Source: Methylorubrum extorquens (GTDB taxonomy: Bacteria; Pseudomonadota; Alphaproteobacteria; Rhizobiales; Beijerinckiaceae). Taken from it: a stretch of DNA of 32,000 bases. The position numbers and the translations under genes are program-made. The notes beneath the pieces were generated by a model. The model ran no database searches and was not told the DNA's origin. It saw only the letters and a list, made by a program, of their open reading frames with translations. This document shows positions 19,501-32,000 of the stretch, in pieces (within the stretch, counting starts at the first letter, position 1; every line of letters starts with the position of its first letter). The DNA is taken from positions 3,210,001-3,242,000 of the forward strand of contig LT962688.1 in NCBI GenBank assembly GCA_900234795.1, in the 5' to 3' direction.

Positions 19501-19836
19501 ATCGAAGACCTGAATGCGCTGCACCGCCTTCGTGGCGCTGTTGATGGTCTCATTCTGCTCGATCAGCTTGACGAGAAGCTGATGCTCGACGGTCGCAGCG
19601 TCGGACGGTGCGCCGATCTGATAGGTGATGTCGGAGTTGAGAAGAACGCGCGGCTCCAACGGATCGAAGATCAATCGATCGCGGTTGAAAAGTTTTCCGG
19701 CCTTGGTCTTCAGGTGCAGGACGAGCTGACGCTTCGACGGGCGCGTGGCGCGCGGCGTCTCCACGGCCATGCGCGCACGGTCACGGCGGCGGAACAGGGG
19801 ACCCCAGAAGCCTTCCGACTTGAACGGAAAAGCCAT
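7435..19836 (-). CDS. Giant repetitive extracellular protein (4133 aa) with an LEPRxLL-type N-terminus; likely a non-Sec (type I-like) secreted adhesin or S-layer-like protein
   Basis: Single uninterrupted 12.4-kb ORF. The ATG at 19836 has GGAGAG 6 nt upstream. There is no hydrophobic signal peptide. FDPLEPRVLLNSD lies at 19630-19668. Three GGxGxD nonapeptides lie at 18679-18863. I saw no Cys on a visual scan. Recurrent LAFN(T/S)(I/V)G and GG(L/I)(I/V)xxNxV...A.I... strand-like motifs are present, plus Thr/Pro/Gly linkers. The last ~14 codons look out of frame (see the junction feature). Confidence 0.92.
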   Translation of the reverse strand: MAFPFKSEGFWGPLFRRRDRARMAVETPRATRPSKRQLVLHLKTKAGKLFNRDRLIFDPLEPRVLLNSDITYQIGAPSDAATVEHQLLVKLIEQNETINSATKAVQRIQVFDYTNGTQGTNPLHTFGIIDANSNQAYTLQGSGGKETITVDADSFKLLGATQKPILAFTDPTSPGNNLDNTLALLNTPTGSAQSGAEFKLTGANAGEIASGKFAGSFSNVANLVGAASADDKLTIGANGSLSGTFGGGKKSLQLDISSVVAGSIDATLSGGGSSYTLARTSGSSAATFGSLAFTAPMTSLGVILGSGDDTLHLASLPPAPSFTVSGGAGADRIVFDTDLSATSGNLAVTFDGGAGNDSIAVSANLSALAGDLGIVFKGGEGANTLSVASGKTLSASGQVTIAADATVTPVLTTSGFDRSGSATAQMAVTVNDGAVIRGTGVRVAVRSDIAIADIAPADTSTISVTANGLAGITLAGTVDAGTGDAVLTTDVNNAVTLTSTLTSQLKSVAPKQTNSSTITVGAKGAVNGGTVKIAANTVAKVDVKAIGLVLPGLLTVTDAAAGTFDKVKSAIKGEGSFSDIFTPAELAAKALIKSAETTINNTTQVTVALSAVSTDPRIKQTGAGTLAGSDPALALQISADDKTDSTITLVARDAASVPGFQFDDPALDGAASAAAKAAAAINILNLFGLSGTQTVTRLTSVDLGVPAAGSLPAGAPAAGDIALVSAEGVAGIHAANAGTLAVRIRAATDATDPANPETGLVAGDGETDNSLPAPMKAGAAQINVNDTVRVAVRGVSVTAASLAVAATNDTTIESRAVQARNLLTGSTKAVVETARLTATGGAVSVVAMDATKAQAIVEPIRTDTLEEESDAEEAKREQIGIARSSAVNTVERDITATVTNSVVTGAQGVALTAQNALDLTTNAKAVVAASKFGVAGSYAVNIVLGSTTATVQGGSVSAATGDISVNASDVTNIDSRVQTSVAGESKSGGTAIGGAAAFNIVGYRPDGLTGSDKLADKVVGMAIDAILGSGFFTFAAAQATRARIEAATATATAGGVGVKAISAGTVNATVSNTVTVSTPEQTRLDEAKTQATRTAINKARTFLGKATLSSEPGAVTSAGSRSIGGLIATNRMNRSATAEVISGATITSGGELGVRATDLSTINANVKLVASSQAASDGGLPTKQPQIKSDYKLSESQPVAITLGQRVAVDFSTLLGEQAIKTVSTLDAIKSNLPSTTKQAQGGTTPGKAPTLKAVKTGDIVLVSPGHPAGSGEVGSYYRYIKTPTAPATSTSIDLSKENFTGPSWELIGAKGDVYAYMGADRTAANKLDLKTVKFTDRDLWRRVSETEAAPAKTTGSGGTSAGGIIVRNEIKGGVSAAISSSSATTTVNAGSVVVSAERGATITSKADATVEAIATIREQTGETAEGTAGSGTASTVPGQTSAFDKSSTSNSSALAINAVIATNTIQSVADASITDAEVTTTGKDGAVAVEAKTTGSIEAEVQAQITALSSGPAGTEDAAADPAAGGSTGGTTTPTTGTTTPTTGSGQTTAPTTSARAGGIQLAFNAIGYESSNLGFDTLNALVGTNLGNPATAQASARITNTRVTATGAVSATAESSGTIASTLSNAVTAATKAASVNSLAVSGLVAMNRVSGAAEAVIDARSKTVSGTDVTVSATDTVGIEAETAVAASASAEKTGSVSGLGKNAAALLGDYTYTTASGSRQVKFGEKIRLSDSWAGKGEKGAVYQYMGADFTAAEDLGNTARDFADFALWKKLDATNVVPGATGGSAAPTGKITAAKSSATALGGIFARNDVSGQAKASIVNTTVQATGDVSITAKSEASINATDESEVEAEGGSAANGVLVSNNVQNGALAFIKDSTVTSEDGGVSVSAENTSTIEASAAGSVAGETTAVGFTLAFNTVGFRQQNPLFNAVDAIVGDPLIATATNGENPAGAKAYITGSTVTAKRDVSVTADSQAKITAEAGNKAEQADSEETVHKAETGARGISAGAVLALNKVSARAEAFIGAETVAAQAPAQTAATVASTDGAVTVSAKNQAGIESTSTMIGASSVSGSVAELAKKAVATALNIYDYTSKSGTKALKVGDRVRLAADFTTPAGSSSNTDAKRTEEPALKGRVFIFVAASDASVNLATEDYTNAARWFAVDDGAIVSTKPTAAGTTPGTTAGDTLDKDTTTIKTAEGTTTITRQKARYTSNGGFQYMMAGQGVLLSKTDTLSKGEPGTIYIWRGADNTKVTLHGEDYTSANWLPAAAKTVMPKLDTVANPPAAPAPAAGSTDPTPTARTPGSSSKAFGGLIVFNEVTGGAGARITDATVTSALDLTVHAADAADISATLLSTVTSSGGTSFQSKTGTAGTSGGAGGGTLIAANGIAATNVVRSGADASVLRSTVESTTANLEVSAENESGVDARIRASSTTSGGEGVSGAVTLAFNSVGYETQNLLFNTIDTLIGQSAISKAFGGEIGTGAKATIVQSSAKAGGDLIVTATSAAKINATVSNAATSTADLASGSGGTGFGVVLASNKVSGSAFALIDNTGVTRDITAGGALAVTATDAAGITSNVQIVTSSTVTKSDGGAVTNQSKLNKYLPSDFSTNPNEVQSATIQSNIIKNRADWAPAELLAFEEKVTAQITRVKGLVEELQAGPATLLKQVETKLLELRIGKVTQEYLDKVNQTLVDQLKAIDTTKIPSDDETDLKTRIGKAAGALADAMKTPSLDTAAVDEARLEALKVAAEAARFGYLDEAALRNSTDLAEKSVGQLIRLQVAVDRAVIETAAKIVELKDGLNSFLKPFGLSTDSIGAIDLSAYGELSKTANAQDVTFGTRVRIADGYAKPTYKAGQGEITVKTGETIEDLTKKIYKYIGAATLDGINSLDPDFKNDKLWTLIADKSGAYKAGDIFIYMGGNAKIDLAATDYTDKLLWKRALESNFIPDGVKLPTTGAGTGTGTGTGTTTPAPATSSTETVAPTGDPSANNASKLGTVAAQPSASLAIGGLVVLNSVHADAVARITGVTTTAGGTVTVQASETATIKATADSAASVKSAASYKPTTDVTAPAPTTPADPSTDRTLGTKSQPTSLALGGIIATNAVLGTARAEIVDSTVTGGGMKVDAANTATIDATAKTATSSDQGAVSITLAFNTIGWKEQNILFRAADTITGQPLIAAGSGNDADPSGARAQILRSSITTTDASGTLAVTARSDASINAQLTNKASASQAVLKDASAYAIGFALSGNLVNSEAVARIDSSNTAGTAIDPTKTLNAAGAVTIAATSNGSITSLNNLSAIASLTKPSVLQDFADKILGNYTYTTESGSKTVTFGDIVFAKVGGVEKLYVYFGDTKLVADLKTEAYTEANGWRENNLREFVKFLPPGVLNLGDSKDIAGSATPPADNTNTTSGQTPAKPYAVAVSGILVTNDVRSAATATLTGMTVAKAGNISVQAEQSGTITATVNSKVESKLKPGTKAGDKKSIAAQAVIASNVVMGASTATIDRSPLGDATANATVGNVAVGARNTGAITATIDSTVDSSETAVGITAAFNKIGSPSTNAVFDLAELLAGIDLDSQMAKGGQFAATASISGQPINATGKVSVEALSKATINATIENAVTSIGSAATTVGAVAGLNFVRVGTSATIADVTSLKAAGGVAVNALSASTINAVVKAPVTAVVYNMPDTTSAPGSTNTSGNTGNAGGTGTATTTRSISVAASFARNTILDVVLEAGLDRIGDLTASAGDVSVTAANTATITAKVAATAIAVLLSTEDGKNLGVSGSGAFGVNTILGGVEARIADSRITASGSQAPSVTDGTGGQGNITVSAKSAATITASVEAAAAAVIVGKGTAQAVAIGVSLAFNMIGYNLSLIPVDGTSSLAADKARSLDVKANVTKSRLSAGRRVSVEAESGGRIEARTLATAMAVGVSTGGSGGTSTDGNIALSGGGLFVRNKVVTSASAVIDGTGSSDDAVTAGTGGINVSAKDTAVIRATSVALGLSANLSADASNTASKSTLAIALSLADNAITSEVAARITQVANLATLGDVTVAANRSADIFAQTYAAAVGAQISSKGDGASVSGGGALSINTVKGSTIAEITDSKVGDSANGGAKVGSLSRSRPRTAPRSPR
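15203..15244 (-). repeat. 21-nt tandem duplication (2 copies, 2 mismatches) encoding TTTPTTG x2 in a Thr/Pro/Gly linker of the giant protein
   Basis: Plus strand cccgtcgtcggcgtggtggtg / cccgtcgtcggcgtcgtggta are adjacent. The minus-strand translation is TTTPTTG TTTPTTG. Confidence 0.8.
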
Positions 19837-20010: not shown

Positions 20011-20811
20011 TCAGGCGTTGCCCGAAGTCTCGAAGTCGGCCGGAGACGCCGGCGCGGTCTCGTCCGCCTGCGCAGACTCGGCCGGAGCACCGATGCGCTC
20101 GGCGATCGGCGCAAGGTTCCGCAGCGAGGCGAGATGCAGATAGATCAGCTCCATCTCGTCCGCCTGCATCAGCTCGGCGAGCTGCTCGGCCGACAGAGCC
20201 TTCAGGCGATCACGGCTGACCACGCTGAAGCCGGAGAGCGTCGAGCGCTGACCGCTGCGCAGCGTGAACTGCGCCTGCATCGGCTCCAGGAGGCCGAACT
20301 CCTGCAGGCGCTTCACGAACAGTTTCGTGCGCTGGAACTGCACTTGATAGGCCTGAAGGAAGCCCAGGACGTTCTGCAGATACTGCGTCCGCTCGCCGTC
20401 GGCGTCGAACAGGCGCTCGCCGCGGCCCTCGTCGTTGCAGCCCGAGAAATCCTCATCGACGCAGAGCGTGAAGGTGGCATCGGCGTCGTTCGCGTTGTCG
20501 CTGGAAAACACGAACGGGTAGCGGCGCAGGAAGGCCGGGACGTACGAACCGGACCACGAACCCGATTCCGATACGTACAGGTTCTCGTTGTCGCGAATGC
20601 CGAGGAGCGCCACCGGAATGATCTCGTCGGCAGCCCCGCCGAACACGATGGAGTACTCAGCCGCCGAATTCGGAAACTCGGCGACCATGAGCGGCACCGA
20701 ATTGACGCCGCGCGCGAAGTCGAACGACGCACCGGCCTTCACGGACCATGACCCGTGACGCTGCCGGGTGACCGGTACGGCACGCTCGTAGATGAGAAGC
20801 TGCTTACTCAT
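20011..20811 (-). CDS. SapC family protein (266 aa)
   Basis: The motif string ...VPLMVAEFPNSAAEYSIVF...IPVALLGIRDNENLYV...GSWSGSYVPAFLRRYPFVF... matches the SapC (PF07277) consensus as I remember it. Codon usage has high GC3. It lies directly upstream of the giant gene on the same strand. Confidence 0.85.
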   Translation of the reverse strand: MSKQLLIYERAVPVTRQRHGSWSVKAGASFDFARGVNSVPLMVAEFPNSAAEYSIVFGGAADEIIPVALLGIRDNENLYVSESGSWSGSYVPAFLRRYPFVFSSDNANDADATFTLCVDEDFSGCNDEGRGERLFDADGERTQYLQNVLGFLQAYQVQFQRTKLFVKRLQEFGLLEPMQAQFTLRSGQRSTLSGFSVVSRDRLKALSAEQLAELMQADEMELIYLHLASLRNLAPIAERIGAPAESAQADETAPASPADFETSGNA

Positions 20812-21110
20812 TCCGACCCCATTTGGCGGCGCTTGTGCGATTTCCGCATCTTCGCCTCCTGCTGCATATCAGTACCGCCCACCGCTGCGGAGGGATGGTT
20901 CCATTTTTTCGATTGATCCAGCGTCTCAGATGCTGAACTCGCCGCCCCGGCCGCGACGGCCTCACCCGAGAGGATCAATCCTGGCGGCCCATTCTCGAAT
21001 GCGCGGGTCTCGGAAGCCATCGTGATCGGGGTCGGCGCGAAAATAATCATAGGCTGTACCCGGTTCGACACGACGTCGAAGCTGGGCTTGGCGCTCCGAT
21101 AGACTGCCAT
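20808..21110 (-). CDS. Hypothetical 100-aa ORF whose stop overlaps the SapC start (ATGA)
   Basis: ATG at 21110 and TGA at 20808-20810 overlapping the SapC ATG (20809-20811). My hand-counted GC3 is roughly 70 percent, higher than the overlapping alternative frame. I recognise no family. Confidence 0.3.
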   Translation of the reverse strand: MAVYRSAKPSFDVVSNRVQPMIIFAPTPITMASETRAFENGPPGLILSGEAVAAGAASSASETLDQSKKWNHPSAAVGGTDMQQEAKMRKSHKRRQMGSE

Positions 21111-21653
21111 ACCATGACAGCAAAGCTTCGCGATTGATGGGCCTGACCGCTCCGCCAGCGTGGCATTCGTCGATCATTTGAAGCAACGGCATCAGCCGAA
21201 AATAGGAAAACACCGAAAATCGACCTCAATCGACATGGCACTGCAGATTTATTTTACAATCGATCCGGCAAGCGCCATTCGGCAAACGGTTTTATTCGAA
21301 TCCATGCGGTTTTGCGAGGACATTTACTTCGAGCGAAGGAATTTCAGCCGATATGTCAGCGGCTACGAATACCCCGGCGATCGTCCAAGCTATCACTGTT
21401 GAGGAGGTTGCCTCTTGAAACCTCCACGGGCGACTTTAGCTGTACCGACGCTTCGACGGCGCCGGACAGCTCAGAGTTATTTTTAGCAGGGACGCGAATG
21501 GTATTTTGCATCCTATGTTGGAGTAATCTGCAATATCACTCGCATCTCTGCTGATAAATTTCATTCGGAACAGATGTTTCTACTAAGCCCCCCTCCTTTT
21601 CCGCGAATGTCGGCGGCCATTACCGGAATAGGAAAAGGCGCCCGATCGCTTTC

Positions 21654-22676
21654 TTGGAAGTCGATTGTCCCGTGACCTCTCTCCAGCGTCTGGATTATCT
21701 CACGACCGGGCTGCCCCACGCGACCGCAGCCGAAATCTGGAGAGGCATGGTCGGCCCCCTGTTCGAACCGCGGGCCTTCCATCCCGGTCAGCAAAATCCG
21801 ACCGGCTCGGCGAGCGGTGCCATCATCGGCGACATCATGGTGGCACGGGTGGTGTTCGGGGCGCAGAGTTATCGCCGCGACCGGGACCTCATCGCCCGCA
21901 CGCCGGATCACATCCTCTTCCATCTCTACAACGTTGGCGGCTTCAGCGGCCTCATCAGCGGGCAGCAAACCACGATCTGGTCGTCGCAGGTCGCGATCAT
22001 CGACCTCGCCCAGGAGATCGATACGCTCGCGGCCTCGTCGGACACGGTCGCGCTGATCGTCCCGCGGGCCTTGCTGCAGGGCCTGGCCGACAACCCGTTG
22101 CCGCCGCGGCTCGATGCCGGACGCAACCGGCTCCTGGCCGCCCATCTGATCGCGCTGCGTGAACGCAGCACGCTGATCGAAGAACCGGATGTCGAGGAGG
22201 TCGTGACGCAGACGCTCGATTTCCTGCGCGCGCTGCTCGATCCCTCCCGCGCCGAGGAGACCGCCGCGACGCCGGCGCTCGCCACCTGTCACCTCACTCT
22301 CGCCGAGCAGACGATCCGCACCCATCTCGCCTCGCCGGACCTGTCGCCGGAGATGATCGCCAACGAGATCGGCGTGTCGCGCGCGACCCTCTACCGGATG
22401 TTCGCCCCCTATGGCGGCATCATGCGCTCGGTCCAGGAACGACGGCTCCTGGCCGTCCGGGCCGCCCTCAGCGACCCGCTGGAGACCCGCCGCCTCTCCC
22501 GGCTCGCGACCGATTTCGGGTTTCGCGGCAAGGTCCATTTCAGCCGCAGCTTCCGCGCCCAGTTCGGCATCACCGCGAGCGAGTTCCGGGCCGAGCAGGT
22601 GGCCCTTGCCCAGCGGGATGCGCGGAGCGATCTTGGCGTCCTGCACGACTGGTGGCCCCGGCTCGGGAACCGATAG
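21654..22676 (+). CDS. AraC family transcriptional regulator (340 aa from TTG 21654; an alternative GTG start is at 21672)
   Basis: The C-terminal double-HTH text ...LSPEMIANEIGVSRATLYRMF...RRLLAVRAAL...LSRLATDFGFRGKVHFSRSFRAQFGITASEFR is typical AraC/XylS. The N-terminal ~200 aa is a non-conserved sensor domain. Confidence 0.88.
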   Translation: MEVDCPVTSLQRLDYLTTGLPHATAAEIWRGMVGPLFEPRAFHPGQQNPTGSASGAIIGDIMVARVVFGAQSYRRDRDLIARTPDHILFHLYNVGGFSGLISGQQTTIWSSQVAIIDLAQEIDTLAASSDTVALIVPRALLQGLADNPLPPRLDAGRNRLLAAHLIALRERSTLIEEPDVEEVVTQTLDFLRALLDPSRAEETAATPALATCHLTLAEQTIRTHLASPDLSPEMIANEIGVSRATLYRMFAPYGGIMRSVQERRLLAVRAALSDPLETRRLSRLATDFGFRGKVHFSRSFRAQFGITASEFRAEQVALAQRDARSDLGVLHDWWPRLGNR

Positions 22677-22807
22677 GGCCTCGTCCCCAAGGGTGGCTGG
22701 CGGGATGCGATGATCGGGCCGCGAAGGGTCCGTGTTTCGACACGTCCTTTGCCGGCGAACCGTCCTCTCTCTTCAGAAAAGCATGCCGGAGACGCGGCAC
22801 CGCCGGT

Positions 22808-23740
22808 TCAAGCCGGAGCCCGGCTCCAGGCCTGCCGCCGGGGCGCGGGCAAGGGGTGGACGAGATCGGCTTCGAGCCCGAATTTCGTGACATAGGCCGT
22901 GTTCAGGCCGAGGCATTCACGGGAGCTGCAGCTCTCCCGATGGGCGCATTGATAGAAGCCGTTGCGCTCGAATTCCCGCCAGAAATCCGGGTCGATGTGC
23001 AGTTCGGGCTGGCCGTTGACGAGGGCATTGCCGAGATCGCCGAGCAGGCATTCGGGGAAGTTCTTCACCTCGACGGCGCGTCCGAGCGCACGGGCGCGCA
23101 GGACCGCCTCGCGCAGATAGGGCAGGACGTCGGCGTGGCGGGCAACGAGGCCCTTCTCGTCGCGCTCGGACATCGGGAAGTAGACCCAGAACTCCATCTG
23201 GGTCAGGCGCTGGAGGTGGGCCAGCCGCGTGACGAGATCGGGCAGCAGGCGGTAGCTCCGCTCGGTCACCACGGTGTTGGTGAGGGTCTCGACGCCCTCC
23301 ATCGCGTCGAGGGTCTCCAAGCCGCGCAGCGCGCGCTCGAACGAGCCCGGCACCAGGGTCAGCGCGTCGTGGCTCGCCGCATCGCTGCCGGCGATGGAGA
23401 CGAAGAACTCGTCGACGCCGGCCTCGACCAGCCGGCGGCAGTAGCTCGGCTGGCCGAGATGCATGCCGTGGGTCTGAATGCGGACATGCGCGAAGCCGCT
23501 GGCTCTCGCCCGCCGGGCGAGTTCGGGCAGGTCGCGCCGCAGGGTGATCTCGGACCCGGTCAGGATCAGGCCGGTCCAGCGCCGCTCGCGGGCGTTCTGG
23601 CTGAGAATTTCCTCGAAATGCGCGTCCGATTCCGGCGCGAGCCGGTCCATCGTGCCCTCGATCATGCAGTGGACGCATTTGAGGTTGCAGCGAAACTCCA
23701 TCGTCAGGGAGACGTAGGCGGCGTGGTCGTAGCGTCCCAT
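22808..23740 (-). CDS. Radical SAM enzyme (310 aa) with a C-terminal Cys cluster
   Basis: The start is set at ATG 23740 (MGRYDHAAYVSLTMEFRCNLKCVHC...). The CxxxCxxC motif lies at ~23669-23692, and GSEITL plus a TIM-barrel-like core follow. The C-terminal QCAHRESCSSREC lies at 22913-22951. The tracked 587-aa ORF extends upstream only as Arg/Pro-rich junk overlapping the neighbouring gene. Confidence 0.85.
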   Translation of the reverse strand: MGRYDHAAYVSLTMEFRCNLKCVHCMIEGTMDRLAPESDAHFEEILSQNARERRWTGLILTGSEITLRRDLPELARRARASGFAHVRIQTHGMHLGQPSYCRRLVEAGVDEFFVSIAGSDAASHDALTLVPGSFERALRGLETLDAMEGVETLTNTVVTERSYRLLPDLVTRLAHLQRLTQMEFWVYFPMSERDEKGLVARHADVLPYLREAVLRARALGRAVEVKNFPECLLGDLGNALVNGQPELHIDPDFWREFERNGFYQCAHRESCSSRECLGLNTAYVTKFGLEADLVHPLPAPRRQAWSRAPA

Positions 23741-23757
23741 GGCGTCGTCCCAGCCCT

Positions 23758-24633
23758 TCAGAGCAGACCGTAATACGCGCTCTTCGTCACCGTCAGCCTG
23801 CCGTCGATCATCGCGTAGTCGATCCCGACATCGAACAGCAGATGTGACAGGCGCCGCCGCTCCGACCGCACGAAGTCGCGGATCGCGGGCGGATAGGCGA
23901 GCCGGTCGAGGAAGGCGATGAGCCCGTCGATGCCGACCCGCGAGAAATAGACGCCGTCGCACAGGCGCTTGTTGGCCACGACCACGACGCCGCAGCGCAT
24001 CAGTTCGGGCCACAGGATCGCGTCGAGATCGAGGCCGGGCAGATCGAAATGGGCCGAGCAGGCGGCCTTGGCCGCAATCGCGTCGCGCTCGCGGGCGGCG
24101 TCGAAGAAGCTGTAGAGGTTGTCGAAGACGAGGCCGTCGGCGGTGAGTCCGTAGCTGAGCCCGGACGAGACGCTGCTGCCGGGATTGCCGACATAGATGT
24201 TGAGGCGGTCGAGGCTCCGCGCGCCCCGGGCCAGGGCGTCGTCGAGATCGAGCGAGAACATGAAGTAGGGTCGCGCGCCCGCATAGCGCAGATCGCAGGG
24301 CACGAACGGCGCCAGGATCGCCAGGACGCGCTCGATAGAGACCGTGCGGTCGAGCCGGGCGTAGTCGTAGAAGTAGAACTCCCAGGTCGTGACGCCGTCC
24401 CGGAGCTTGGCGCCCCAGACGCTGCGGCCGGGGCCGAGGCCGTCGCGCAGCGCGTCGCAGATCGTGAACAGCTTCGGATCCGCACCCGCGCAGGCCAACG
24501 AGTGCCAGAGCAGGCTCGCTTGCCGCAGGCGTCCCGCCGTCGGCCCGACCGGCTCGTAATCCCACAGGCAATAATCGGCGTAGCGGTCACCCGGCGCGGA
24601 CAGTTCCAGGCGGGCGGGGTCGAGGCCGGTCAT
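23758..24633 (-). CDS. Hypothetical protein (291 aa), family not recognised; appears related to the C-terminal extension of the upstream flavoprotein
   Basis: The ATG at 24633 overlaps the upstream stop (ATGA, 24630-24633). The text is protein-like with repeated strand-like segments (TWEFYFYDY, YFMFSLDLD, LNIYVGNP, LLFDVGIDYAMIDGRLTVTKSAYYG). GC3 is high. The upstream part of the tracked 401-aa ORF is junk. Confidence 0.75.
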   Translation of the reverse strand: MTGLDPARLELSAPGDRYADYCLWDYEPVGPTAGRLRQASLLWHSLACAGADPKLFTICDALRDGLGPGRSVWGAKLRDGVTTWEFYFYDYARLDRTVSIERVLAILAPFVPCDLRYAGARPYFMFSLDLDDALARGARSLDRLNIYVGNPGSSVSSGLSYGLTADGLVFDNLYSFFDAARERDAIAAKAACSAHFDLPGLDLDAILWPELMRCGVVVVANKRLCDGVYFSRVGIDGLIAFLDRLAYPPAIRDFVRSERRRLSHLLFDVGIDYAMIDGRLTVTKSAYYGLL

Positions 24634-27014
24634 CCGCCGGCCACGCCGGAATACACGGTGACGAAGGGCTGGCCGTCCCGCCCGACGCCGCCGGCGACAT
24701 GCCCCAGCGTCTCCTGAAGCCGCTCTCGCAGAACCATCGCGGCCGCGTCGCGCGGCACGCCGAGATCGACGAAGGCTTGGCCGAGCAGCGGCTCCGCATC
24801 GGCCACGGTCAGGCCGCAGGCATAGAGGTTGAGGTCGTAGGACAAGCGTAGCCCCGGCTCCTCGCGGGCTTCGAGATAGTGGACCGCACCGCGCCCCCTC
24901 TCCTGCGCCAACCGGAGGATCGCATGGGCGGTGTCGCGCGCGGGCGCGCCGGCCGGCCCCCACTCACCGGCCATCCGGGTCAGCCGCGCCGCGATCTCCT
25001 CGGGGCCGCGCACCCGTGGCCAGTGGTAGAGGGTGACGACGGGCGGATGCGTTCCCCCTAGCTTCCACTTATAGGCGCGATGGACCAGCATCGGCTCCGC
25101 GCCCGCCTCGTCCGCCCCGGTCCAGGCCGCGTCAGTGCGCGACGACCATTCGACGTAGAGCTTGTAGAGCGCGCCCGACGGGCCGTCCTCGTAGCCGAGA
25201 TGAAGGATGTCCGCCCCGCCGATCACGCCGGCGGCCTCCGCGCGCTCCCGCTCCGGCAATCCGAGCCCGGCGGCCAGCCGGTCGAGCGTCGCCTCGGGTG
25301 TGAGGCCGAGGCTCGCGCGGTGCAGGCTCATGAGGAAGCGGTCGGTCTGCAATCCCGCCGGGGAGGCCTTCACCGAGCGCTCGTAGCCGAAGGGCTGGCC
25401 GAGCCCCGCCACCAGATCGGCGAGACGGGCGCCCTCCGGCGTCCTGCGCAGAGCCGCCGGGCCGGCCGGCGCCGAAGCCGCCGCGATGCGCACCGCAGGC
25501 GCGGCGACGGGGGCCTCGCCGTGCAACGCGTCCATCAGACGGACATGCGGCGCCATCGCCCCGGCGATCTGGGCCGACTGCGCACGGATACTGGCGAGCA
25601 GACGGGCGATCTCGCGGCCATCGGCGACATCGACCGGAGCGAAGGGCCGACGCGGCAGGAAATCGGCGCCGGAGAATAGGAGGTAATGATCGCCCTCGCT
25701 GAACGGCGCCTCCTCGTTCAACGCGACATGCCCGGCCAACTCGTAGAGGTCGAGGCGGTCGGCGAGCCGGTCGGGGATCATCACCGCGCGGGCCGCCGCC
25801 CAAAACGGCTCCGACCGCCGGCCGAGAACGTAATGCGCGGCCACCGCCTCGGCCGCATCGTCGTGGAAGCGGTTCAGGCGCGCGGCATAGGCACGGCGCA
25901 GCACGTCACCGCCTTCCCCCTGGCGCGGCAGGTAGGCGAGGAACGTTTCGAGTCCGGCCAGGACGAGATCGAGATCGAAGCCGAGGAGCGGCTCGACCGC
26001 TCCGGCCGCCCCCATGGCGACGACGTTGCGCTGCCACGGTGCGGCGCGGCGACCGTGACGCAGTTCCGCATCGACGATGCCCGCCTGCCCATCGAAGGTG
26101 CGGCGCAGGGTGGCCGCCGCCGCATCCGGCGGCGTGGTCCGGATGTCGTAGACGAACAGATGCTCCGTGCGATCGGCCAGCGGCAGCGACGCCGTCCATC
26201 CCTCCGCCCGGCCGCGATAGGCGGTGAAGGGCGGCACCTCGGGCGATCGCGGCAAGGACAGGCGGGCCACGCGGTCTCCGGGGCCGCTGCCCGCGACCCA
26301 GGCCTCGCCGAGCGCGGTGCCGATGAGCTGCGCGGCCGCGCCGGTACAATCGAGGAAGATGTCGCCCTCGACCGTCTGTCCTCCGTCGAGGACGAGGGCG
26401 CCGACATCGCCGTACAGGTTGCGCTCGATCTCGCGGACCCGCCCGGTCACCCCGCGCACGCCTTCGGAAAGCGCCAACTCGCGCAGGAAACGGACGAGAG
26501 CAGTTCGGTCGAGGTGATAGCCGTAATCACCGGATTCGGTGAGCGAGGACCGATCCGCCAAGGGGCGGGGTCCGCGCCCCTCGGCCGCCATCAGCGCCTG
26601 GGGCGCGTAATCGGCGTAGCTCCCGGCCTCGTCCTCGGCGCCCTCGCCGCGAAGCTTCATCCAGTAGTGGAACAGGTCGCGGCCGGCGATCCGCGGGCCG
26701 CAGGCACCGAAGGGGTGCCAGTGGCCCTGGCCCTCGGCGAACCAGTCGTCGTAGCGGCTGGCGAGCCGATAGGTCGCCGCGCAGCGGCGCATGAAGATCG
26801 CCTCGTCGATGCCGAACCCCTTGAGGAAACGGGTGAAGGCCGGGCGCGTCGCCAGGGCGGCGGAGGCCCCCGCAGCCGGGGCCGACCCGACGAGGGTGAT
26901 CGTCCAGCCCGCCCGGCGCAGGACGCGCTTCAGATAGAGCGCGGCCATCCAGCCGGCGGGACCGCCGCCGGCGACGACCAGGCGCGGAGGCGCGGAGCGT
27001 TCGGACCTGAACAT
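24630..27014 (-). CDS. Tryptophan-halogenase-family FAD-dependent protein (divergent motifs) fused to a ~280-aa C-terminal domain of unknown function (794 aa)
   Basis: The start is set at ATG 27014 (MFRSERSAPPRLVVAGGGPAGWMAALYLKR...), with GGAG ~12 nt upstream. GGGPAGWMAA and GHWHPFG resemble the Trp-halogenase family N-terminus. The site expected for WxWxIP reads GWTASLPL (26178-26201). The tracked 972-aa ORF is an upstream junk extension across the kinase gene. Confidence 0.8.
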   Translation of the reverse strand: MFRSERSAPPRLVVAGGGPAGWMAALYLKRVLRRAGWTITLVGSAPAAGASAALATRPAFTRFLKGFGIDEAIFMRRCAATYRLASRYDDWFAEGQGHWHPFGACGPRIAGRDLFHYWMKLRGEGAEDEAGSYADYAPQALMAAEGRGPRPLADRSSLTESGDYGYHLDRTALVRFLRELALSEGVRGVTGRVREIERNLYGDVGALVLDGGQTVEGDIFLDCTGAAAQLIGTALGEAWVAGSGPGDRVARLSLPRSPEVPPFTAYRGRAEGWTASLPLADRTEHLFVYDIRTTPPDAAAATLRRTFDGQAGIVDAELRHGRRAAPWQRNVVAMGAAGAVEPLLGFDLDLVLAGLETFLAYLPRQGEGGDVLRRAYAARLNRFHDDAAEAVAAHYVLGRRSEPFWAAARAVMIPDRLADRLDLYELAGHVALNEEAPFSEGDHYLLFSGADFLPRRPFAPVDVADGREIARLLASIRAQSAQIAGAMAPHVRLMDALHGEAPVAAPAVRIAAASAPAGPAALRRTPEGARLADLVAGLGQPFGYERSVKASPAGLQTDRFLMSLHRASLGLTPEATLDRLAAGLGLPERERAEAAGVIGGADILHLGYEDGPSGALYKLYVEWSSRTDAAWTGADEAGAEPMLVHRAYKWKLGGTHPPVVTLYHWPRVRGPEEIAARLTRMAGEWGPAGAPARDTAHAILRLAQERGRGAVHYLEAREEPGLRLSYDLNLYACGLTVADAEPLLGQAFVDLGVPRDAAAMVLRERLQETLGHVAGGVGRDGQPFVTVYSGVAGG

Positions 27015-27043
27015 CGAGTTGTCGGCTCCGCGAGCGTCGCCCC

Positions 27044-27703
27044 TCACGCCGTCGGCGTCGGGAGGGCCGTAAGGGTGGCGTGGAGAGTGGATTGGATTGC
27101 GGACTGAATGGCGTCGAGGTGCGCGGCGAGCGTGCCGGCGCCGAGAATCTGGTCGGCCGCCGGCCGGACCCGTTCGCGCTGCAGCGCGTAGGTCGGGTGC
27201 AGCAGGGCATCGTAGCGCCCGAGATAGGCATCGAGCGCCTCGAGAAGCCCGGGGGCGGCCGTCGGATCGCGCCCCGCCGCCTCGGTGAAGCTGCGCAGCT
27301 TGCGCGCCAGCGCGACATCCAGGGGCAGATCGAGCCAGACCAGATGGTCGATCTGCGCGCCCGTTCCGGGATGGGCCCGGCCGAGCAGGGTGTCGAGAAC
27401 GATCACGGGCCGTGCCGCGCGCCGCGACAGGCGCAGCGTGCCGCCGCGCTCCCGGTCCGGCACCGGCTCGCCGCGCCGCAGCCGGGCCAGATCCTCGGCG
27501 AGCCCCGGCACGGGCACCGCGTCGAGGGGTGCGCCGCCCGCGAGCCATGCCGCCACCCGCTCCGGCGGCCAGCCGGTGATTTCCTCATAGGCGTCGTAGG
27601 CGAGCACGGGCGCGCCGCCGAAGCGCTCCGATAGGGCGTGGGACAAGGTGGTCTTGCCGCTGCCCGGCGGTCCGCTGACCGCGAGAACGAAGGGCGCGCT
27701 CAC
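27044..27703 (-). CDS. P-loop NTPase / small-molecule or nucleotide kinase-like protein (219 aa)
   Basis: Walker A VSGPPGSGKTT lies at the N-terminus, and the size and layout are those of uridine-kinase/AAA-kinase-like proteins. The GTG start at 27703 overlaps the methyltransferase stop (GTGA). Confidence 0.75.
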   Translation of the reverse strand: MSAPFVLAVSGPPGSGKTTLSHALSERFGGAPVLAYDAYEEITGWPPERVAAWLAGGAPLDAVPVPGLAEDLARLRRGEPVPDRERGGTLRLSRRAARPVIVLDTLLGRAHPGTGAQIDHLVWLDLPLDVALARKLRSFTEAAGRDPTAAPGLLEALDAYLGRYDALLHPTYALQRERVRPAADQILGAGTLAAHLDAIQSAIQSTLHATLTALPTPTA

Positions 27704-28752
27704 CGGGCACCGCCGGGCTTGCGCGCCGCGATCAGGTGGAACGGCGTCTCAAACGCAAGGCAGCGGACGCTGCAATCGACGAAGCCGAGAGCGGCCAGCG
27801 TCTCGGTATAGAGGTCCGCATCCCGGAAGAAGGGCTGGAACACGAGGTCGGCGGATTGGACGTAGCCGAGGGGGCGCTCGCGCAGAGCCATGGGTGCCCG
27901 CTCATAGATCGCGAGACGCCCGCCGGGGGCGAGCGCGCGGGCGGCGCGTTCGAGCAGGGCACGGGCCTCGCCGGCCGGCCAATCGTGCAGGACCGACTTG
28001 AAGGTCACGAGGTCGTGCCCCTCGGGCAGGGGATCGCGCCGCATGTCGCCGGCCTGGAACGCGACGCGGGCGCCTTCCGGCCGGTCCGCGAGGTTCTCGC
28101 GGCCGAGCGCGCAGACGACGGGCAGGTCGAACACCGTCGCGGTCAGGTCCGGCGCGCGGCGGCAGGCCTGGGCGGCGAACTCGCCGCTATTACCGCCGAG
28201 ATCGAGCAGGCGCCGATGCCGGCCCGGCTCGATCCGGTCGAGGCCCGGCCCGGCCTCGTAGCGGGTCAGGCAGGTGGTGTAGGCGACCCAGCGCCGGGTC
28301 GCGTCGAGGTTGTCCGGCGTGATCTCGAAGCAGCGGTCGTAGCGGAACAGCTCGAAGGTGCGCGAGGCCGCCATGAAAGCCGGAAGGTCGGCGACGAAGG
28401 CGGGGAAATGCCGGCGCAGATCCTCGGACGCGGCGGCAGCGAAGGCGAGCTTCGCCTCGATGAGGTCGCGGCAGGGCAGCACGGCGCGGAACGCCTCGCT
28501 CAGCCCGATCCGGCCCGGCGCGGGCTCGGCGGCGATGCCGGCACCGACGAGGAGGCCGGTCAGGGAGGCAAGTTGCGGCCGCTCGAGCCGAAACTCCTCG
28601 GCCAGCCCCGAAATGGTGGTGTCCGCGCGGCGGGCGAGCCGGTCGATCAGACCCGATGTGAGGGCGAAGCTGAGGGCGTGCGCGGCGGCTTCGCTTTCGA
28701 GGAAGCGGTCCACGCGCGGAAACTCCGGGCCCGGCAGCTCCGGCGCCGACAT
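27700..28752 (-). CDS. Class I SAM-dependent O-methyltransferase, family-2 type (350 aa; an alternative ATG at 28776 adds 8 aa)
   Basis: LLDLGGNSGEFA (SAM motif I), ...FDLP..., ...FKSVLHDWP... and ...PGGRLAIYE are typical of PF00891-type O-methyltransferases. A winged-helix/dimerisation-like N-terminus is present. GGAGGGGGGAGGG lies just upstream of the ATG at 28752. Confidence 0.85.
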   Translation of the reverse strand: MSAPELPGPEFPRVDRFLESEAAAHALSFALTSGLIDRLARRADTTISGLAEEFRLERPQLASLTGLLVGAGIAAEPAPGRIGLSEAFRAVLPCRDLIEAKLAFAAAASEDLRRHFPAFVADLPAFMAASRTFELFRYDRCFEITPDNLDATRRWVAYTTCLTRYEAGPGLDRIEPGRHRRLLDLGGNSGEFAAQACRRAPDLTATVFDLPVVCALGRENLADRPEGARVAFQAGDMRRDPLPEGHDLVTFKSVLHDWPAGEARALLERAARALAPGGRLAIYERAPMALRERPLGYVQSADLVFQPFFRDADLYTETLAALGFVDCSVRCLAFETPFHLIAARKPGGAR

Positions 28753-29114: not shown

Positions 29115-29435
29115 ATGCGTGCAGATGAGGGAGCAGTCGTGAGCGAGAGCAGCAAGCCCGGTGCCGCCGATCAGGTGCGTGCGATCGAATGGCGTGAAGA
29201 CAGCATGTCGACACAGTTCGCCAACGTCGTGAACGTGCAGGGCACCCGCGAGCAGGTGGATCTGTTCTTCGGCACCAATCGGACCTGGAACCTCGCCGAG
29301 ACAGAGAGCGTGGTGGTCGATCTCTCGAACCGCGTGATCCTCACGCCGCTCGCAGCCAAGCGCCTCCACTCCGTCCTCGGCGGCGTGCTGACCGAGTACG
29401 AGAACCGCCACGGGCGCCTCGACCTCGACGCCTGA
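29115..29435 (+). CDS. DUF3467-like small protein (106 aa from ATG 29115; 98 aa from GTG 29139, which has the better SD, AGGGAG)
   Basis: ...QFANVVNVQGTREQVDLFFG...NRVILTPLAAKRLHSVLGGVLTEYENRHGRL matches my memory of the DUF3467 pattern ((Y/F)xN...E..lDFg...R.imtP..AKrL...L...l..YE..fG.i). The upstream part of the tracked 176-aa ORF lies in low-GC intergenic DNA and is unlikely to be coding. Confidence 0.7.
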   Translation: MRADEGAVVSESSKPGAADQVRAIEWREDSMSTQFANVVNVQGTREQVDLFFGTNRTWNLAETESVVVDLSNRVILTPLAAKRLHSVLGGVLTEYENRHGRLDLDA

Positions 29436-29436
29436 C

Positions 29437-29463
29437 CCGTAATGCCCCGCCGCCGCATTACGG
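29437..29463 (+). promoter_or_regulatory. Intercistronic hairpin between the DUF3467-like gene and the HlyD-family gene
   Basis: ccgtaatgc-cccgccgcc-gcattacgg gives a perfect 9-bp stem and a 9-nt loop, starting 2 nt after the stop codon. No clear U-tract follows. Confidence 0.5.
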
Positions 29464-29521
29464 CGGCCGGGCCCTTCTGCAACGAGACCCTGAGCGCCGT
29501 CAGTCAAGGAATCCGGGGGCC

Positions 29522-31408
29522 ATGAGCGAGCGTTTGGCGGTGGAGGGCGCGTCCGCAGCGAGCCCGGCCGCGCGCCTGTCCCTGCTGGAGCCGGCCCTGT
29601 GGCAGGTGCTCCGGACCTCCCAGACGCTTCAGGCCGCGGCGGAAGCGTGGCTCACGCTCCAGGCGCCGATGCTCGGCGCCCCGCGGGCCTGCGTCCTGCT
29701 TCCGGGCACGTCGGTGGGGCTCGCCCCGCTCGCCGTGTTCCCGGCTCAATCCGAGTGCGAAGCCGGCCTGCGCGAGACCGCCGAGGCCGCCTTTCGCGAG
29801 AACCGCCCGGTCGTGCAGGCGATGGCGGAGGCCGGGCCGCATCCGGGCGCCGCGCCGCAGGGGTCGGGCGCGTGGATCGCGCTGCCGCTGGTTCTGGACG
29901 AGGCGTGTTTCGCCGTCACCGCCTTCGCCCTCGACAGCCTCGACAAGGACGAGCTGCGCGCGGCGATCCGTCAGGTGCAGTGGGGCAGCGCGTGGCTCGT
30001 CGCCAAGCAGGCCGAACTGATCGGGCGGGGCGAGCGCCGGACGCTGGCCCGCTCGCGCTCCGTCCTCGACCTGCTCGCCGGGGTGCTCGAGCAATCGCGC
30101 TTTTCCGCCGCCTGCACCGCCGCGGTGACGGACCTTGCCATCGCCTTTTCCTGCCAGCGCGCGGCAATCGGCTTCGTGCGGCGCGGCAGCACCCGGATCG
30201 CGGCGATCTCGCACTCGGCGCAGTTCGGCCGCGAGATGAACCTCGTGCGCCGCCTCGGCGCCTGCATGAACGAGGCGATCGACCAGCGCAGCCTGATCCT
30301 GTTCCCGCCGCCCGAGAACGAGGCCACCGTCACGACGGCGCATGCCGACCTCGCCCGCCTGCAATATGGCGGCCGAGTGCTGACCGTGCCGATGCTCGTC
30401 GATGACCGCTTCGTCGGCGCCATCACCCTGGAGCGGCCCGCCGACCAGCCGTTCAGCCTCGAGATCGTCGAGCAGGTGAGCGCCTGCGCCGCCGCCATCG
30501 GCCCGGTGCTGGAAGACAAGCGGCAGAACGACCGATGGCTGGTGCTGAAGGCCACCGACGCCGTGATGAACGGCGCGCGGCTGGTCTTTGGCCCGAACCA
30601 TACCGGGCTCAAGCTCGGCCTCGCCGCGACGCTGGCCGTGGTCCTGGCGCTCTCGGTGATCAAGATCGATTACCGCGTGACTGCGGACGCCCGCGTCGAA
30701 GGCCTCGTGCGCCGTTCCGTCGTCGCCTCCTACGACGGCTACCTGAAGACCGCCGGGCACCGCGCCGGCGACACGGTGCGCAAGGGCGATCTCCTCGCCG
30801 CCCTGGAAGACCGCGATCTCGCCCTGGAGCGCCTGCGCTGGGTCACCGAGCGCCAGCAGCGCACCTACGAGTACGACAAGGCGCTCGCCACCCGGCAGCC
30901 CGCCACGATCAACGTGGTGAAGAGCCAGATCGATCAGGCCGACGCGCAGATCCGCCTGCTCGACGAGCAGATCGCGCGCTCGAAATTCACCGCGCCCTTC
31001 GACGGCTTGATCGTCTCCGGCGACCTTTCGCAATCCATCGGCGGCGCCATCAGCCGCGGACAGGTGCTGTTCGAGATCGCTCCGCTCGACAGCTACCGCG
31101 TCGTCCTCAGCGTGGACGAGCGCCTGATCGCCGACCTGCGCGAGGGCCAGACCGGGCACGTGCTCGCGACCTCCCTGCCCGACCAGCCGCAAGTGCTGAC
31201 GATCCAGACCATCACCCCCGTGGCCGAGGCCAAGAACGGCCGCAACCTGTTCCGGGTCGAGGGCCGGATCGAGGACGGCGCCACCCGGCTGCGGCCGGGC
31301 ATGGAAGGCATCGCCAAGGTCGATGTCGACCGGCGGCTGCTCGCCTGGGTCTGGGCCCGGCCGATCGTCGATTGGGTGCACCTCGCCCTCTGGCACTGGT
31401 GGCCGTGA
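29522..31408 (+). CDS. HlyD-family membrane fusion / periplasmic adaptor protein with an N-terminal cytoplasmic GAF-like region (628 aa)
   Basis: The N-terminal ~330 aa end with GAF-like text (...VLTVPMLVDDRFVGAITLERPADQPFSLEIVEQVSACAAAIGPVLE). One TM segment (LKLGLAATLAVVLALSVI) follows. Then comes an HlyD-type lipoyl/coiled-coil/beta-barrel region (YDGYLKTAGHRAGDTVRKGDLLAALEDRDL...FTAPFDGLIVSGDL...RPGMEGIAKVDV). Confidence 0.85.
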   Translation: MSERLAVEGASAASPAARLSLLEPALWQVLRTSQTLQAAAEAWLTLQAPMLGAPRACVLLPGTSVGLAPLAVFPAQSECEAGLRETAEAAFRENRPVVQAMAEAGPHPGAAPQGSGAWIALPLVLDEACFAVTAFALDSLDKDELRAAIRQVQWGSAWLVAKQAELIGRGERRTLARSRSVLDLLAGVLEQSRFSAACTAAVTDLAIAFSCQRAAIGFVRRGSTRIAAISHSAQFGREMNLVRRLGACMNEAIDQRSLILFPPPENEATVTTAHADLARLQYGGRVLTVPMLVDDRFVGAITLERPADQPFSLEIVEQVSACAAAIGPVLEDKRQNDRWLVLKATDAVMNGARLVFGPNHTGLKLGLAATLAVVLALSVIKIDYRVTADARVEGLVRRSVVASYDGYLKTAGHRAGDTVRKGDLLAALEDRDLALERLRWVTERQQRTYEYDKALATRQPATINVVKSQIDQADAQIRLLDEQIARSKFTAPFDGLIVSGDLSQSIGGAISRGQVLFEIAPLDSYRVVLSVDERLIADLREGQTGHVLATSLPDQPQVLTIQTITPVAEAKNGRNLFRVEGRIEDGATRLRPGMEGIAKVDVDRRLLAWVWARPIVDWVHLALWHWWP

Positions 31409-31419
31409 GGGGTTGAGGC

Positions 31420-32000
31420 ATGTCCCAGTCCCTGTTCAGCCAATCGTGGTACCGCGTCGCGGCCCTGCGCCCGCGCCTGCGCCGCCATGCCGAGATCCAC
31501 CGGCAGAGCTTTCGCGGCGAGGTCTGGTACGTCCTTCAGGATCACCAGACCGGGCGCTTCCACCGCCTCTCGCCCGCCGCCAACCTCATCCTGTGCATGA
31601 TGGACGGGCGCCGCACCCTGCAGGAGGTGTGGGAGGCGGCCGCGCGCCGCAACGAGGATGACCCGCCGACCCAGGACGACACGATCCGTCTGATCTCGCA
31701 GCTCCACGGCTCGGACCTGCTCCAGGGCGACCTGCCGCCCGATCTCGCCGAACTCGCCGAGCGCTCGGAATCGACCGCGCGCCGCACCCTGATCGCCCGG
31801 GTGAAGAACCCGCTGGCCCTGCGCTTCCCGCTGTTCGACCCCGATCCGTTGCTCGACCGGGTCGCGCCGTATTTCCGGCCGCTCTTCTCGGTCTGGGGGC
31901 TCGCGGTCTGGCTCGCGGTGGTGATTGCCGGCCTCGTCGTGGCCGGGTTGCACGCGGGCGAGCTGACCGGCGACGTCGCCGGTCAGATGCTCTCGGCGCA
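31420..32000 (+). CDS. N-terminal part of a 'putative peptide zinc metalloprotease' type protein (PqqD-like N-domain, then membrane region; M50/HlyD-fusion family). Truncated by the window edge.
   Basis: ATG at 31420 follows GAGGGGTTGAGG. MSQSLFSQSWYRVAALRPRLRRHAEIHRQSFRGEVWYVLQDHQTGRFHRLSPAANLILCMMDGRRTLQEVWEAA...DDPPTQDDTIRLISQLHGSDLLQGD... is the conserved N-terminus I remember for this family. A first TM segment (VWGLAVWLAVVIAGLVVAGL) follows. It is absent from the ORF track because there is no stop codon within the window. Confidence 0.8.
   Translation, partial: MSQSLFSQSWYRVAALRPRLRRHAEIHRQSFRGEVWYVLQDHQTGRFHRLSPAANLILCMMDGRRTLQEVWEAAARRNEDDPPTQDDTIRLISQLHGSDLLQGDLPPDLAELAERSESTARRTLIARVKNPLALRFPLFDPDPLLDRVAPYFRPLFSVWGLAVWLAVVIAGLVVAGLHAGELTGDVAGQMLSA

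Follow-up and report, generated by a model that had tools for sequence, protein, structure and literature searches.

A SecA-like, M50 and HlyD operon of Methylorubrum extorquens as a candidate exporter of a giant LEPR-XLL protein

What does a transport operon carry across the cell envelope if it opens with a small DUF3467 protein and continues with a GAF-fused HlyD adaptor and a PqqD-like membrane protein? This question is raised by the 3′ end of a 32,000-nucleotide (nt) stretch of Methylorubrum extorquens DNA (assembly GCA_900234795.1, contig LT962688.1, positions 3,210,001 to 3,242,000 of the forward strand), which we refer to as the window and whose positions serve as coordinates unless another locus is named. 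A preliminary description of the window, made by a model from its letters and a list of its open reading frames (ORFs), had placed DUF3467 where a cargo, chaperone or immunity protein would sit and expected the remainder of a transporter downstream. With moderate confidence, and on the strength of domain content and gene linkage, we instead read the operon as a dedicated envelope-spanning exporter of a giant LEPR-XLL protein that is encoded in the same window.

The three genes at this end of the window are the 5′ half of one operon on the plus strand. They encode DUF3467 (29139–29435, 98 amino acids (aa), GTG start), a 628-aa adaptor that joins a GAF domain, a transmembrane (TM) helix and HlyD domains (29522–31408), and the first 193 residues of a 715-aa PqqD-M50-HlyD fusion (31420–32000). 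The continuation was read from contigs that an exact-sequence look-up of the GAF-HlyD adaptor had returned and that match the window at 100% identity throughout the 12.5 kb they have in common; L001–L003 denote copies of this locus, and L002 lies in a complete genome that is 99.8% identical (GCA_002117815.2). The full operon thus assembled consists of DUF3467, GAF-HlyD, PqqD-M50-HlyD, a truncated SecA-like ATPase, a further HlyD adaptor and a 219-aa exported protein, and its successive intergenic gaps of 86, 11, –8 and 13 nt are an operon-like arrangement in line with the proposed cotranscription. Gene calls in the identical contigs moved two starts, as DUF3467 begins not at ATG 29115 but at GTG 29139, which is preceded by a Shine-Dalgarno-like GAGGGAG run, and the fusion begins at 31420 and not at 31421. 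Close homologues carry the names Methylorubrum or Methylobacterium.

The second gene is indeed a GAF-fused HlyD adaptor, with a Pfam GAF domain at aa 196–331 (nt 30107–30514, 41.5 bits against a cutoff of 22.4) and HlyD/RND-adaptor domains at aa 376–603. A single strong hydrophobic helix lies at aa 362–380 (nt 30605–30661) and the predicted cytoplasmic part is aa 1–361, so that the long cytoplasmic portion noted at first sight stands, at a length of about 361 and not about 330 residues. In the third gene a PqqD-like domain spans aa 37–101 (nt 31528–31722) and encloses the motif that had been placed at 31558–31640; its PF05402 score is 29.9 bits for the fragment in the window and 27.7 bits for the full-length protein, with a cutoff of 23.4. 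A 14-sequence family alignment shows the block SxSWYRV...LRPRLR...WYVLQD...GRFHRLSP, already singled out as conserved, to be largely invariant. Following the first TM helix (aa 156–174, nt 31885–31941), the protein continues past the window end into an M50 intramembrane metalloprotease core (PF02163, 29.7 bits against a cutoff of 27.2; at least six predicted hydrophobic segments) and a C-terminal HlyD-like domain, both read from the identical contigs. The HExxH motif is HEAGH at residues 210–214, a second motif, NPLLRFDGYY, starts at residue 306, and H210, E211, H214 and N306...D312 are invariant in the same 14-sequence alignment. The M50 and second HlyD features predicted for the downstream sequence are therefore present, the former fused to an HlyD domain and the latter as a gene of its own.

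The ABC and TolC genes that had also been expected are not found downstream. The ATPase of the operon is a truncated SecA-like protein of 678 aa, whose gene overlaps the end of the M50 fusion gene by 8 nt. It carries SecA_DEAD, SecA_PP_bind (preprotein cross-linking) and P-loop_SecA (second P-loop) domains and aligns to B. subtilis SecA over residues 17–556 only, corresponding to NBD1, PPXD and NBD2; likewise, its coverage of the NCBIfam SecA model ends at about position 547 of 789. We rejected its assignment as a housekeeping SecA or an accessory SecA2, as it has neither the full-length architecture nor the equivalog score and falls under every NCBIfam SecA/SecA2 cutoff (best 590 bits against 814). 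The next gene encodes the second HlyD adaptor (293 aa, signal-like N-terminal sequence), which brings the operon proteins with HlyD-family domains to three; the RND-type adaptor model TIGR01730 is above its cutoff for this protein and for GAF-HlyD. The last gene of the operon (L001 17040–17699, just past the window end) encodes the 219-aa protein, which has a signal-peptide-like N-terminus and no family match; in loci of other genomes, tblastn picked it up in L009 (Methylorubrum populi) alone. The protein might be a periplasmic or outer-membrane component peculiar to this lineage. No ABC transporter is encoded in the operon or within 10 kb of it.

This combination of genes is already known, having been described by sequence analysis in 2015 as a four-gene module in the order GAF-HlyD, M50-like-HlyD, SecA_DEAD without wing and scaffold, and HlyD/biotin-lipoyl adaptor, with META1p2402-2399 as the copy in M. 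extorquens AM1 (Kamneva, Poudel & Ward, PLoS One, PMC4452313). These authors proposed a type-I-like system in which SecA_DEAD would provide the ATPase activity and the M50 protein the pore, and called its biological role 'completely unknown' (PMC4452313). The operon that begins in the window has these four core genes in this very order, including a SecA_DEAD protein that has the preprotein-binding domain and no wing or scaffold, co-encoded with the GAF-HlyD, M50-like-HlyD and HlyD/biotin-lipoyl proteins. A term search of the 2015 paper returned no cargo, RTX, giant genes, PqqD, SapC or DUF3467, and in our incomplete coverage of the literature we found no paper that ties the module to giant, LEPR-XLL, DUF3467 or PqqD proteins. 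What is new here are thus the links of the module to DUF3467, PqqD, SapC, RTX and giant LEPR-XLL genes, while the module as such is not. The preliminary description, accurate as far as it went, had missed the SecA-like motor, the 2015 publication and the probable cargo.

What the sequence data show directly is which genes the module contains and in which order, the domains they encode, the conservation of the catalytic motifs and the genomic linkage to giant LEPR-XLL/RTX genes, SapC and DUF3467. The comparison covered 80 loci. These were found through the M50 protein in a scan of one genome per species and span Alpha-, Beta-, Gamma- and Deltaproteobacteria, Myxococcota, Nitrospira, Flavobacteriales and Phycisphaerae; family counts come from tblastn with the Methylorubrum proteins and from de novo clustering of all ORFs. 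The PqqD-M50-HlyD fusion is present in 80, GAF-HlyD in 79, the SecA-like protein in 74 and the second HlyD in at least 53 of these loci, and the order of the core genes is the same wherever the sequence suffices. Among the M50 homologues, 76 of 80 retain HExGH and all 80 retain NxxPxxxxDG; of the 74 SecA-like homologues, 70 have Walker A and 73 the DEAD box. The PqqD-like region is conserved to the same degree as the protease core. The family is large, with at least 7,000 relatives of the M50 fusion at 90% clustering and 2,377 clusters at 50% identity matched by its N-terminal 193 residues, and its full-length members are nearly always 712–730 aa long. No ABC exporter or TolC family recurs in the flanks of the 80 loci, the sole ABC cluster being a branched-chain amino-acid uptake ATPase; a TolC-type protein, seen neither in the window nor recurrently in the locus flanks, may be encoded elsewhere.

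The most prominent partner of the module is a giant gene. In the window it lies on the minus strand and starts at 19836; its 5′ part is an open frame of 4133 codons (7435–19836) and encodes the probable cargo, followed in other reading frames by a continuation (1–7586) that runs off the window. In L002 the corresponding gene call is 15,714 aa long. The N-terminus of the giant ORF matches NF012209, the LEPR-XLL domain, at 27 bits (cutoff 17; three other giant ORFs score 24–31 bits), with the basic leader and LEPR-XLL motif at aa 55–77 (nt 19606–19674). The 6,600 residues visible in the window, which excludes the C-terminus, gave no Pfam match, and the gene has no tandem repeats at the DNA level. 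Of the 39 loci whose flanks extend for 5 kb or more in both directions, 31 contain an open frame of 1,300 or more codons next to the module, and in 3 of the remaining 8 (L011, L012, L060) a LEPR-XLL ORF starts at the locus edge. The adjacent giant ORFs mostly run off their locus at more than 2,000 codons and are usually co-directional with the module, ending 35–330 nt before DUF3467 or GAF-HlyD; in three loci that were looked up from DUF3467 in long contigs, giant genes of 14,719, 18,499 and 14,719 aa lie directly upstream of DUF3467.

Twelve module-flanking ORFs, the one in the window included, begin with a basic leader of 19–93 residues that ends in F/L-x-x-LEPRxLLSAD, a set that takes in every large flanking ORF with a visible N-terminus except a 1,444-aa ORF in L019. 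A regular expression for LEPR-XLL run on six-frame translations gave 14 hits, all at these N-termini and with L001–L003 repeating the locus of the window, where we estimate that about 0.1 would arise by chance. The giant ORFs that flank the module in L020 and L047 contain RTX repeats, and many of the others have frequent GGxGxD motifs. At the opposite end two C-termini recur, a matrixin-like zinc-protease motif HExxGHxxGLxH (for example in L015, L020, L023, L028, L044, L075 and L078) and a 'GW...basic...RFxRW' tail (for example in L034, L047, L063, L065, L074, L084 and L086), and each of the two might act as an additional signal for sorting or processing.

Giant proteins of this kind have been met before. 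The AM1 genome encodes META1_2412, a protein of 15,831 aa (PMC2680597), and its locus tag, ten above that of the AM1 GAF-HlyD gene, would fit the nine genes that separate giant gene and operon in the window. Chlorochromatium has proteins of 36,806 and 20,647 aa with LEPRxLL N-termini and a sapC neighbour, which are co-expressed with a horizontally acquired secA and 'lack known signals for transport' (bioRxiv 10.64898/2026.03.19.712371). Giant Omnitrophota and Actinobacteria proteins embed SecA_DEAD domains without scaffold and wing (bioRxiv 10.1101/2023.11.21.568195). The motor of the operon resembles these embedded domains in having neither scaffold nor wing, and accessory SecA2 systems in being a divergent second SecA-type motor that would serve special substrates; it differs in being a separate 678-aa protein with HlyD and M50 partners and in having no SecY2 or accessory Sec genes.

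How might such a machine work? Reasoning from domain content and linkage, we propose that the giant protein, its direction of transport and the tasks of the PqqD, M50, GAF and DUF3467 components fit together as follows. The basic N-terminal leader of the giant protein, which ends in F/L-x-x-LEPRxLLSAD, would be bound in the cytoplasm by the PqqD-like domain, of RRE type, that the M50-HlyD fusion carries, and cut off by the intramembrane HExxH protease. The SecA-like motor, which keeps NBD1, PPXD and NBD2 and is devoid of the SecY-docking parts, would then thread the chain N-to-C through the M50-HlyD membrane component, and the three kinds of HlyD-family adaptor would lead across the periplasm to an outer-membrane channel whose gene would lie elsewhere. 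Gating or regulation of the machine may fall to the GAF domains of one adaptor, and DUF3467 might be produced in abundance and serve as a small adaptor or holdase, either for the cargo or for the enzymes that modify it. DUF3467 and SapC are likely factors for cargo handling or modification, and so are the radical SAM, methyltransferase, oxygenase and halogenase-like genes that variably accompany the module.

The exporter proposed here has the logic of the peptidase-containing bacteriocin exporters, whose C39 domain cleaves the N-terminal leader during export by an ABC transporter. In both, a protease borne by the exporter would recognise and remove an N-terminal leader, whereas the candidate protease of the operon is an intramembrane M50 enzyme with a PqqD/RRE domain, the motor is not of the ABC type and the candidate substrates are thousands of residues long. 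RRE-dependent proteases of ribosomally synthesized and post-translationally modified peptides (RiPPs) follow the same principle of leader recognition. Classical type I systems (HlyB-HlyD-TolC; LapEBC) share with the module the HlyD-family adaptors and a giant candidate substrate without signal peptide encoded nearby, which bears RTX repeats in some loci. In contrast to them, the module has no ABC transporter and comprises a SecA-like ATPase, an M50-HlyD membrane component and three adaptor paralogues, and its conserved signal candidate is N-terminal (LEPR-XLL) and not C-terminal.

More tentatively, and as a proposal that we would not yet call probable, LEPR-XLL may be the signal of an unrecognised and widespread export route for the largest bacterial proteins. 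In this route PqqD/RRE would read the signal, M50 would clip it, and a SecY-independent SecA-like motor would drive a chain of 10,000–35,000 residues N-to-C, perhaps co-translationally, through M50-HlyD, GAF-HlyD and HlyD to the surface, with DUF3467 and SapC as dedicated cargo adaptors or modification factors. How bacterial proteins of 10,000–36,000 residues without a known secretion signal are exported is an open question according to the 2026 Chlorochromatium preprint, and the present locus pairs one such giant with a complete candidate machine in the genetically tractable Methylorubrum/Methylobacterium extorquens. If the proposal is correct, it would establish a further secretion route, one in which SecA is put to use apart from the Sec translocon, extend to giant proteins the RiPP-style leader recognition by PqqD/RRE and M50, and supply the first functional contexts for DUF3467, SapC and the LEPR-XLL motif.

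Several observations weigh against the giant protein being exported by the module. The evidence for their linkage is genomic only, and in the window giant gene and operon lie on opposite strands, with nine genes and about 9 kb between them. The giant gene of the window is interrupted by two frame breaks within about 70 nt (7435–7590), each at a CTCTCTC run. Past these breaks the repeat-like protein sequence carries on in the new frame, and L003, whose 100% identity to the window applies to the 12.5 kb in common, a part that does not take in the breaks, calls an uninterrupted giant gene of at least 10,864 aa, while an exact-product look-up of the 4,133-aa ORF of the window returned no record; the breaks are either an assembly error or a strain-specific pseudogene. 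Further, the PqqD match is modest at about 28–30 bits, and the specific NCBIfam PqqD models score far under their cutoffs for the third gene. An M50 core is not known to serve as a protein-conducting channel, and the outer-membrane component was not found near the operon. In exponentially growing AM1 only GAF-HlyD, the first gene reanalysed, is clearly expressed (PMC4452313). Finally, about 60% of the loci do not have DUF3467 (below), a predicted model of DUF3467 has no significant structural neighbour in the PDB, and the RTX repeats of the cargo homologues would suit classical C-terminus-first type I export through an ABC transporter encoded elsewhere.

This last point leads to the alternative that survives best, even though we consider it unlikely. 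Here, the giant RTX-type protein would leave the cell by a classical ABC type I system encoded elsewhere, and the task of the module would be confined to sensing a signal by its GAF domain and cleaving or anchoring the N-terminal LEPR-XLL region, with a logic comparable to the control of LapA by LapD and LapG. The RTX repeats in the giant ORFs, the conserved M50 protease with its intact catalytic motifs, the sensory GAF domain and a locus without ABC transporter or TolC are all in keeping with processing and retention of this kind. A pure protease switch, however, hardly explains why a SecA-like ATPase with an intact preprotein-binding domain is conserved, nor why there are three different HlyD-family adaptors, and Pfam scans of all operon proteins detected neither of the Lap-type regulators, that is neither the periplasmic C93 protease (LapG) nor the c-di-GMP receptor (LapD).

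A slightly more doubtful possibility is a RiPP pathway, in which PqqD/RRE-M50 would be the leader peptidase of a small peptide (as for daptide and YydF), the neighbouring enzymes would modify this peptide and the HlyD proteins would export it. The presence of the PqqD domain speaks for such a pathway, as do the highest-ranking NCBIfam models for the M50 fusion (daptide intramembrane metalloprotease, 1.1e-48; YydH/LiaK epipeptide protease, 5e-10) and the block of radical SAM, O-methyltransferase and halogenase-like genes that recurs beside the module in several lineages. The PqqD-like and M50 parts of the fusion align to positions 1–363 of the 379 of the daptide model NF041824. Yet the scores are far under the cutoffs (166.3 against 300 for NF041824 and 39.4 against 225 for NF058609), and the fusion differs from RiPP leader peptidases in its added C-terminal HlyD domain and in its context, a SecA-like ATPase and a giant gene and not a daptide cluster. 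The modification block is found in only about 10–15 of the 80 loci, compared with a giant ORF in 31 of the 39 well-flanked ones, no precursor-like ORF of at least 90 aa recurs (shorter ORFs were not searched), and a SecA-like motor points to a long polypeptide as substrate.

It is improbable, in our view, that DUF3467 itself is the exported or processed substrate, as in lantibiotic operons where a structural gene and an attenuator precede the export genes. DUF3467 does head the operon, many lineages have a stem-loop behind it, in some cases with a U-tract, and a variable N-terminus of about 20 residues stands ahead of its conserved core. The identification as DUF3467 made in the preliminary description is secure (PF11950, E = 2.9e-16, 59.7 bits against a cutoff of 25), and the survey of its linkage that had been suggested shows a recurrent association: a hidden Markov model search found DUF3467 immediately 5′ of GAF-HlyD in 26 of the 69 loci with enough upstream sequence (∼38%), and all three DUF3467-centred look-ups showed it in the same position. 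As it is missing from the other 43 loci, DUF3467 is a recurrent accessory and not a core part of the module, which argues against it being the substrate. Its conservation is very strong, with 18 invariant columns among 140 sequences, unlike that of typical cargo, and it has no LEPR-XLL or leader-like motif; the giant LEPR-XLL gene is the likelier cargo. Lastly, a generic tripartite efflux pump for small molecules or lipids, with M50 in regulated intramembrane proteolysis of a signalling protein, is very improbable: TIGR01730 is above cutoff for two adaptors and M50 proteases are usually signalling enzymes, but no RND, MFS or ABC pump gene is present, no sigma/anti-sigma genes recur in the 80 loci, and the SecA-like motor and the giant-gene linkage would go unexplained.

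An adaptor role suits DUF3467 better than that of cargo, judging from a fusion in the deltaproteobacterial locus L027, where DUF3467 is joined N-terminally to an 'X' domain of about 280 aa (4033–5301 and 279–935, both on the minus strand of that locus). In the window the same domain is the C-terminal extension of a Trp-halogenase-like protein (24630–25500, minus strand), and as a stand-alone ORF it lies beside the module in L012, L016, L032, L038 and L071. Its conserved motifs are ERSxK, YKxYLE, SFDINLY, LGHxSGG and TxYY, and this enzyme-like domain has no Pfam or PDB match.

The possibility that DUF3467 is a SecB-like chaperone for the SecA-like ATPase was considered and is not supported by sequence, profile or model comparisons. 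A sequence search of the PDB gave no match, and hhalign assigned a probability of 0.1% to a relationship with an unverified sequence of E. coli SecB. A first AlphaFold model was too weak to use, with a predicted local distance difference test (pLDDT) score of 59.5; a second one built from 140 sequences reached 78.9 and consists of three strands and a long helix (beta-beta-beta-alpha). None of the PDB neighbours of this second model reaches E < 0.2, the insignificant ones (E > 0.2) being PC4/Sub1, MRP1/2 and PUR-alpha, and SecB is not among the best 50 of 346 structural matches.

Between DUF3467 and GAF-HlyD the window contains the perfect 9-bp inverted repeat that had been pointed out (29437–29463, plus strand; arms 29437–29445 and 29455–29463, 9-nt loop). 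The repeat is real, though it makes no convincing terminator: it overlaps a competing 12-nt repeat, has no U-tract, is not reported by a terminator scan and lies in an intergenic RNA that folds no better than its shuffles (z = –0.24). We therefore rejected it as an intrinsic terminator, and by itself this hairpin is not beyond chance. Strong stem-loops, several with U-tracts, were seen between the same two genes in L022, L034, L037, L052 and others, and an internal terminator has been inferred within the operon of M. extorquens AM1 (PMC4452313). Such stem-loops 3′ of DUF3467 could lead to more DUF3467 product than machine.

The genes between the giant gene and the operon begin with SapC (PF07277, E = 1.9e-71; 20011–20811, minus strand), directly upstream of the giant gene, and a 100-aa ORF without family match (20808–21110, minus strand) that overlaps the SapC start by 4 nt. 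In about 25 loci SapC adjoins the core operon or is inserted into it; where it lies inside, it occupies the junction of M50 and SecA-like or of GAF-HlyD and M50 (L020, L028, L035, L038, L044, L049, L066). Sequence searches found no solved structure for SapC or for the M50 fusion. An AraC-family regulator (21747–22676, plus strand) is divergent from the 100-aa ORF, and the stretch at 20808–22700, between this ORF and the AraC-family gene, is low in G+C (56% compared with ∼70%), has no Rfam match and contains a 55-aa ORF called by one assembly.

Rfam detected no structured RNA in the window, whose G+C content is 70%, and an anti-phage defence system was rejected, as PADLOC gave no match. The high G+C content gives rise to long antisense ORFs, which shadow nearly all real genes, as does the frame at 29504–31396 (minus strand) opposite GAF-HlyD, and even appear 'conserved' across loci in clustering, so that ORF length alone is no evidence of a gene in the window.

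Divergent from the exporter operon, a putative modification block occupies 22808–28752 on the minus strand. It comprises a radical SAM protein (22808–23740), a 291-aa protein without assigned family (23758–24633), the Trp-halogenase-like protein with its X domain (24630–27014), a P-loop protein (27044–27703) and an O-methyltransferase (27700–28752), and parts of it recur beside the module in distant lineages. A 2OG-Fe(II) oxygenase (PF13759) lies directly 3′ of the second HlyD gene in four loci, including L024 (15017–15691).

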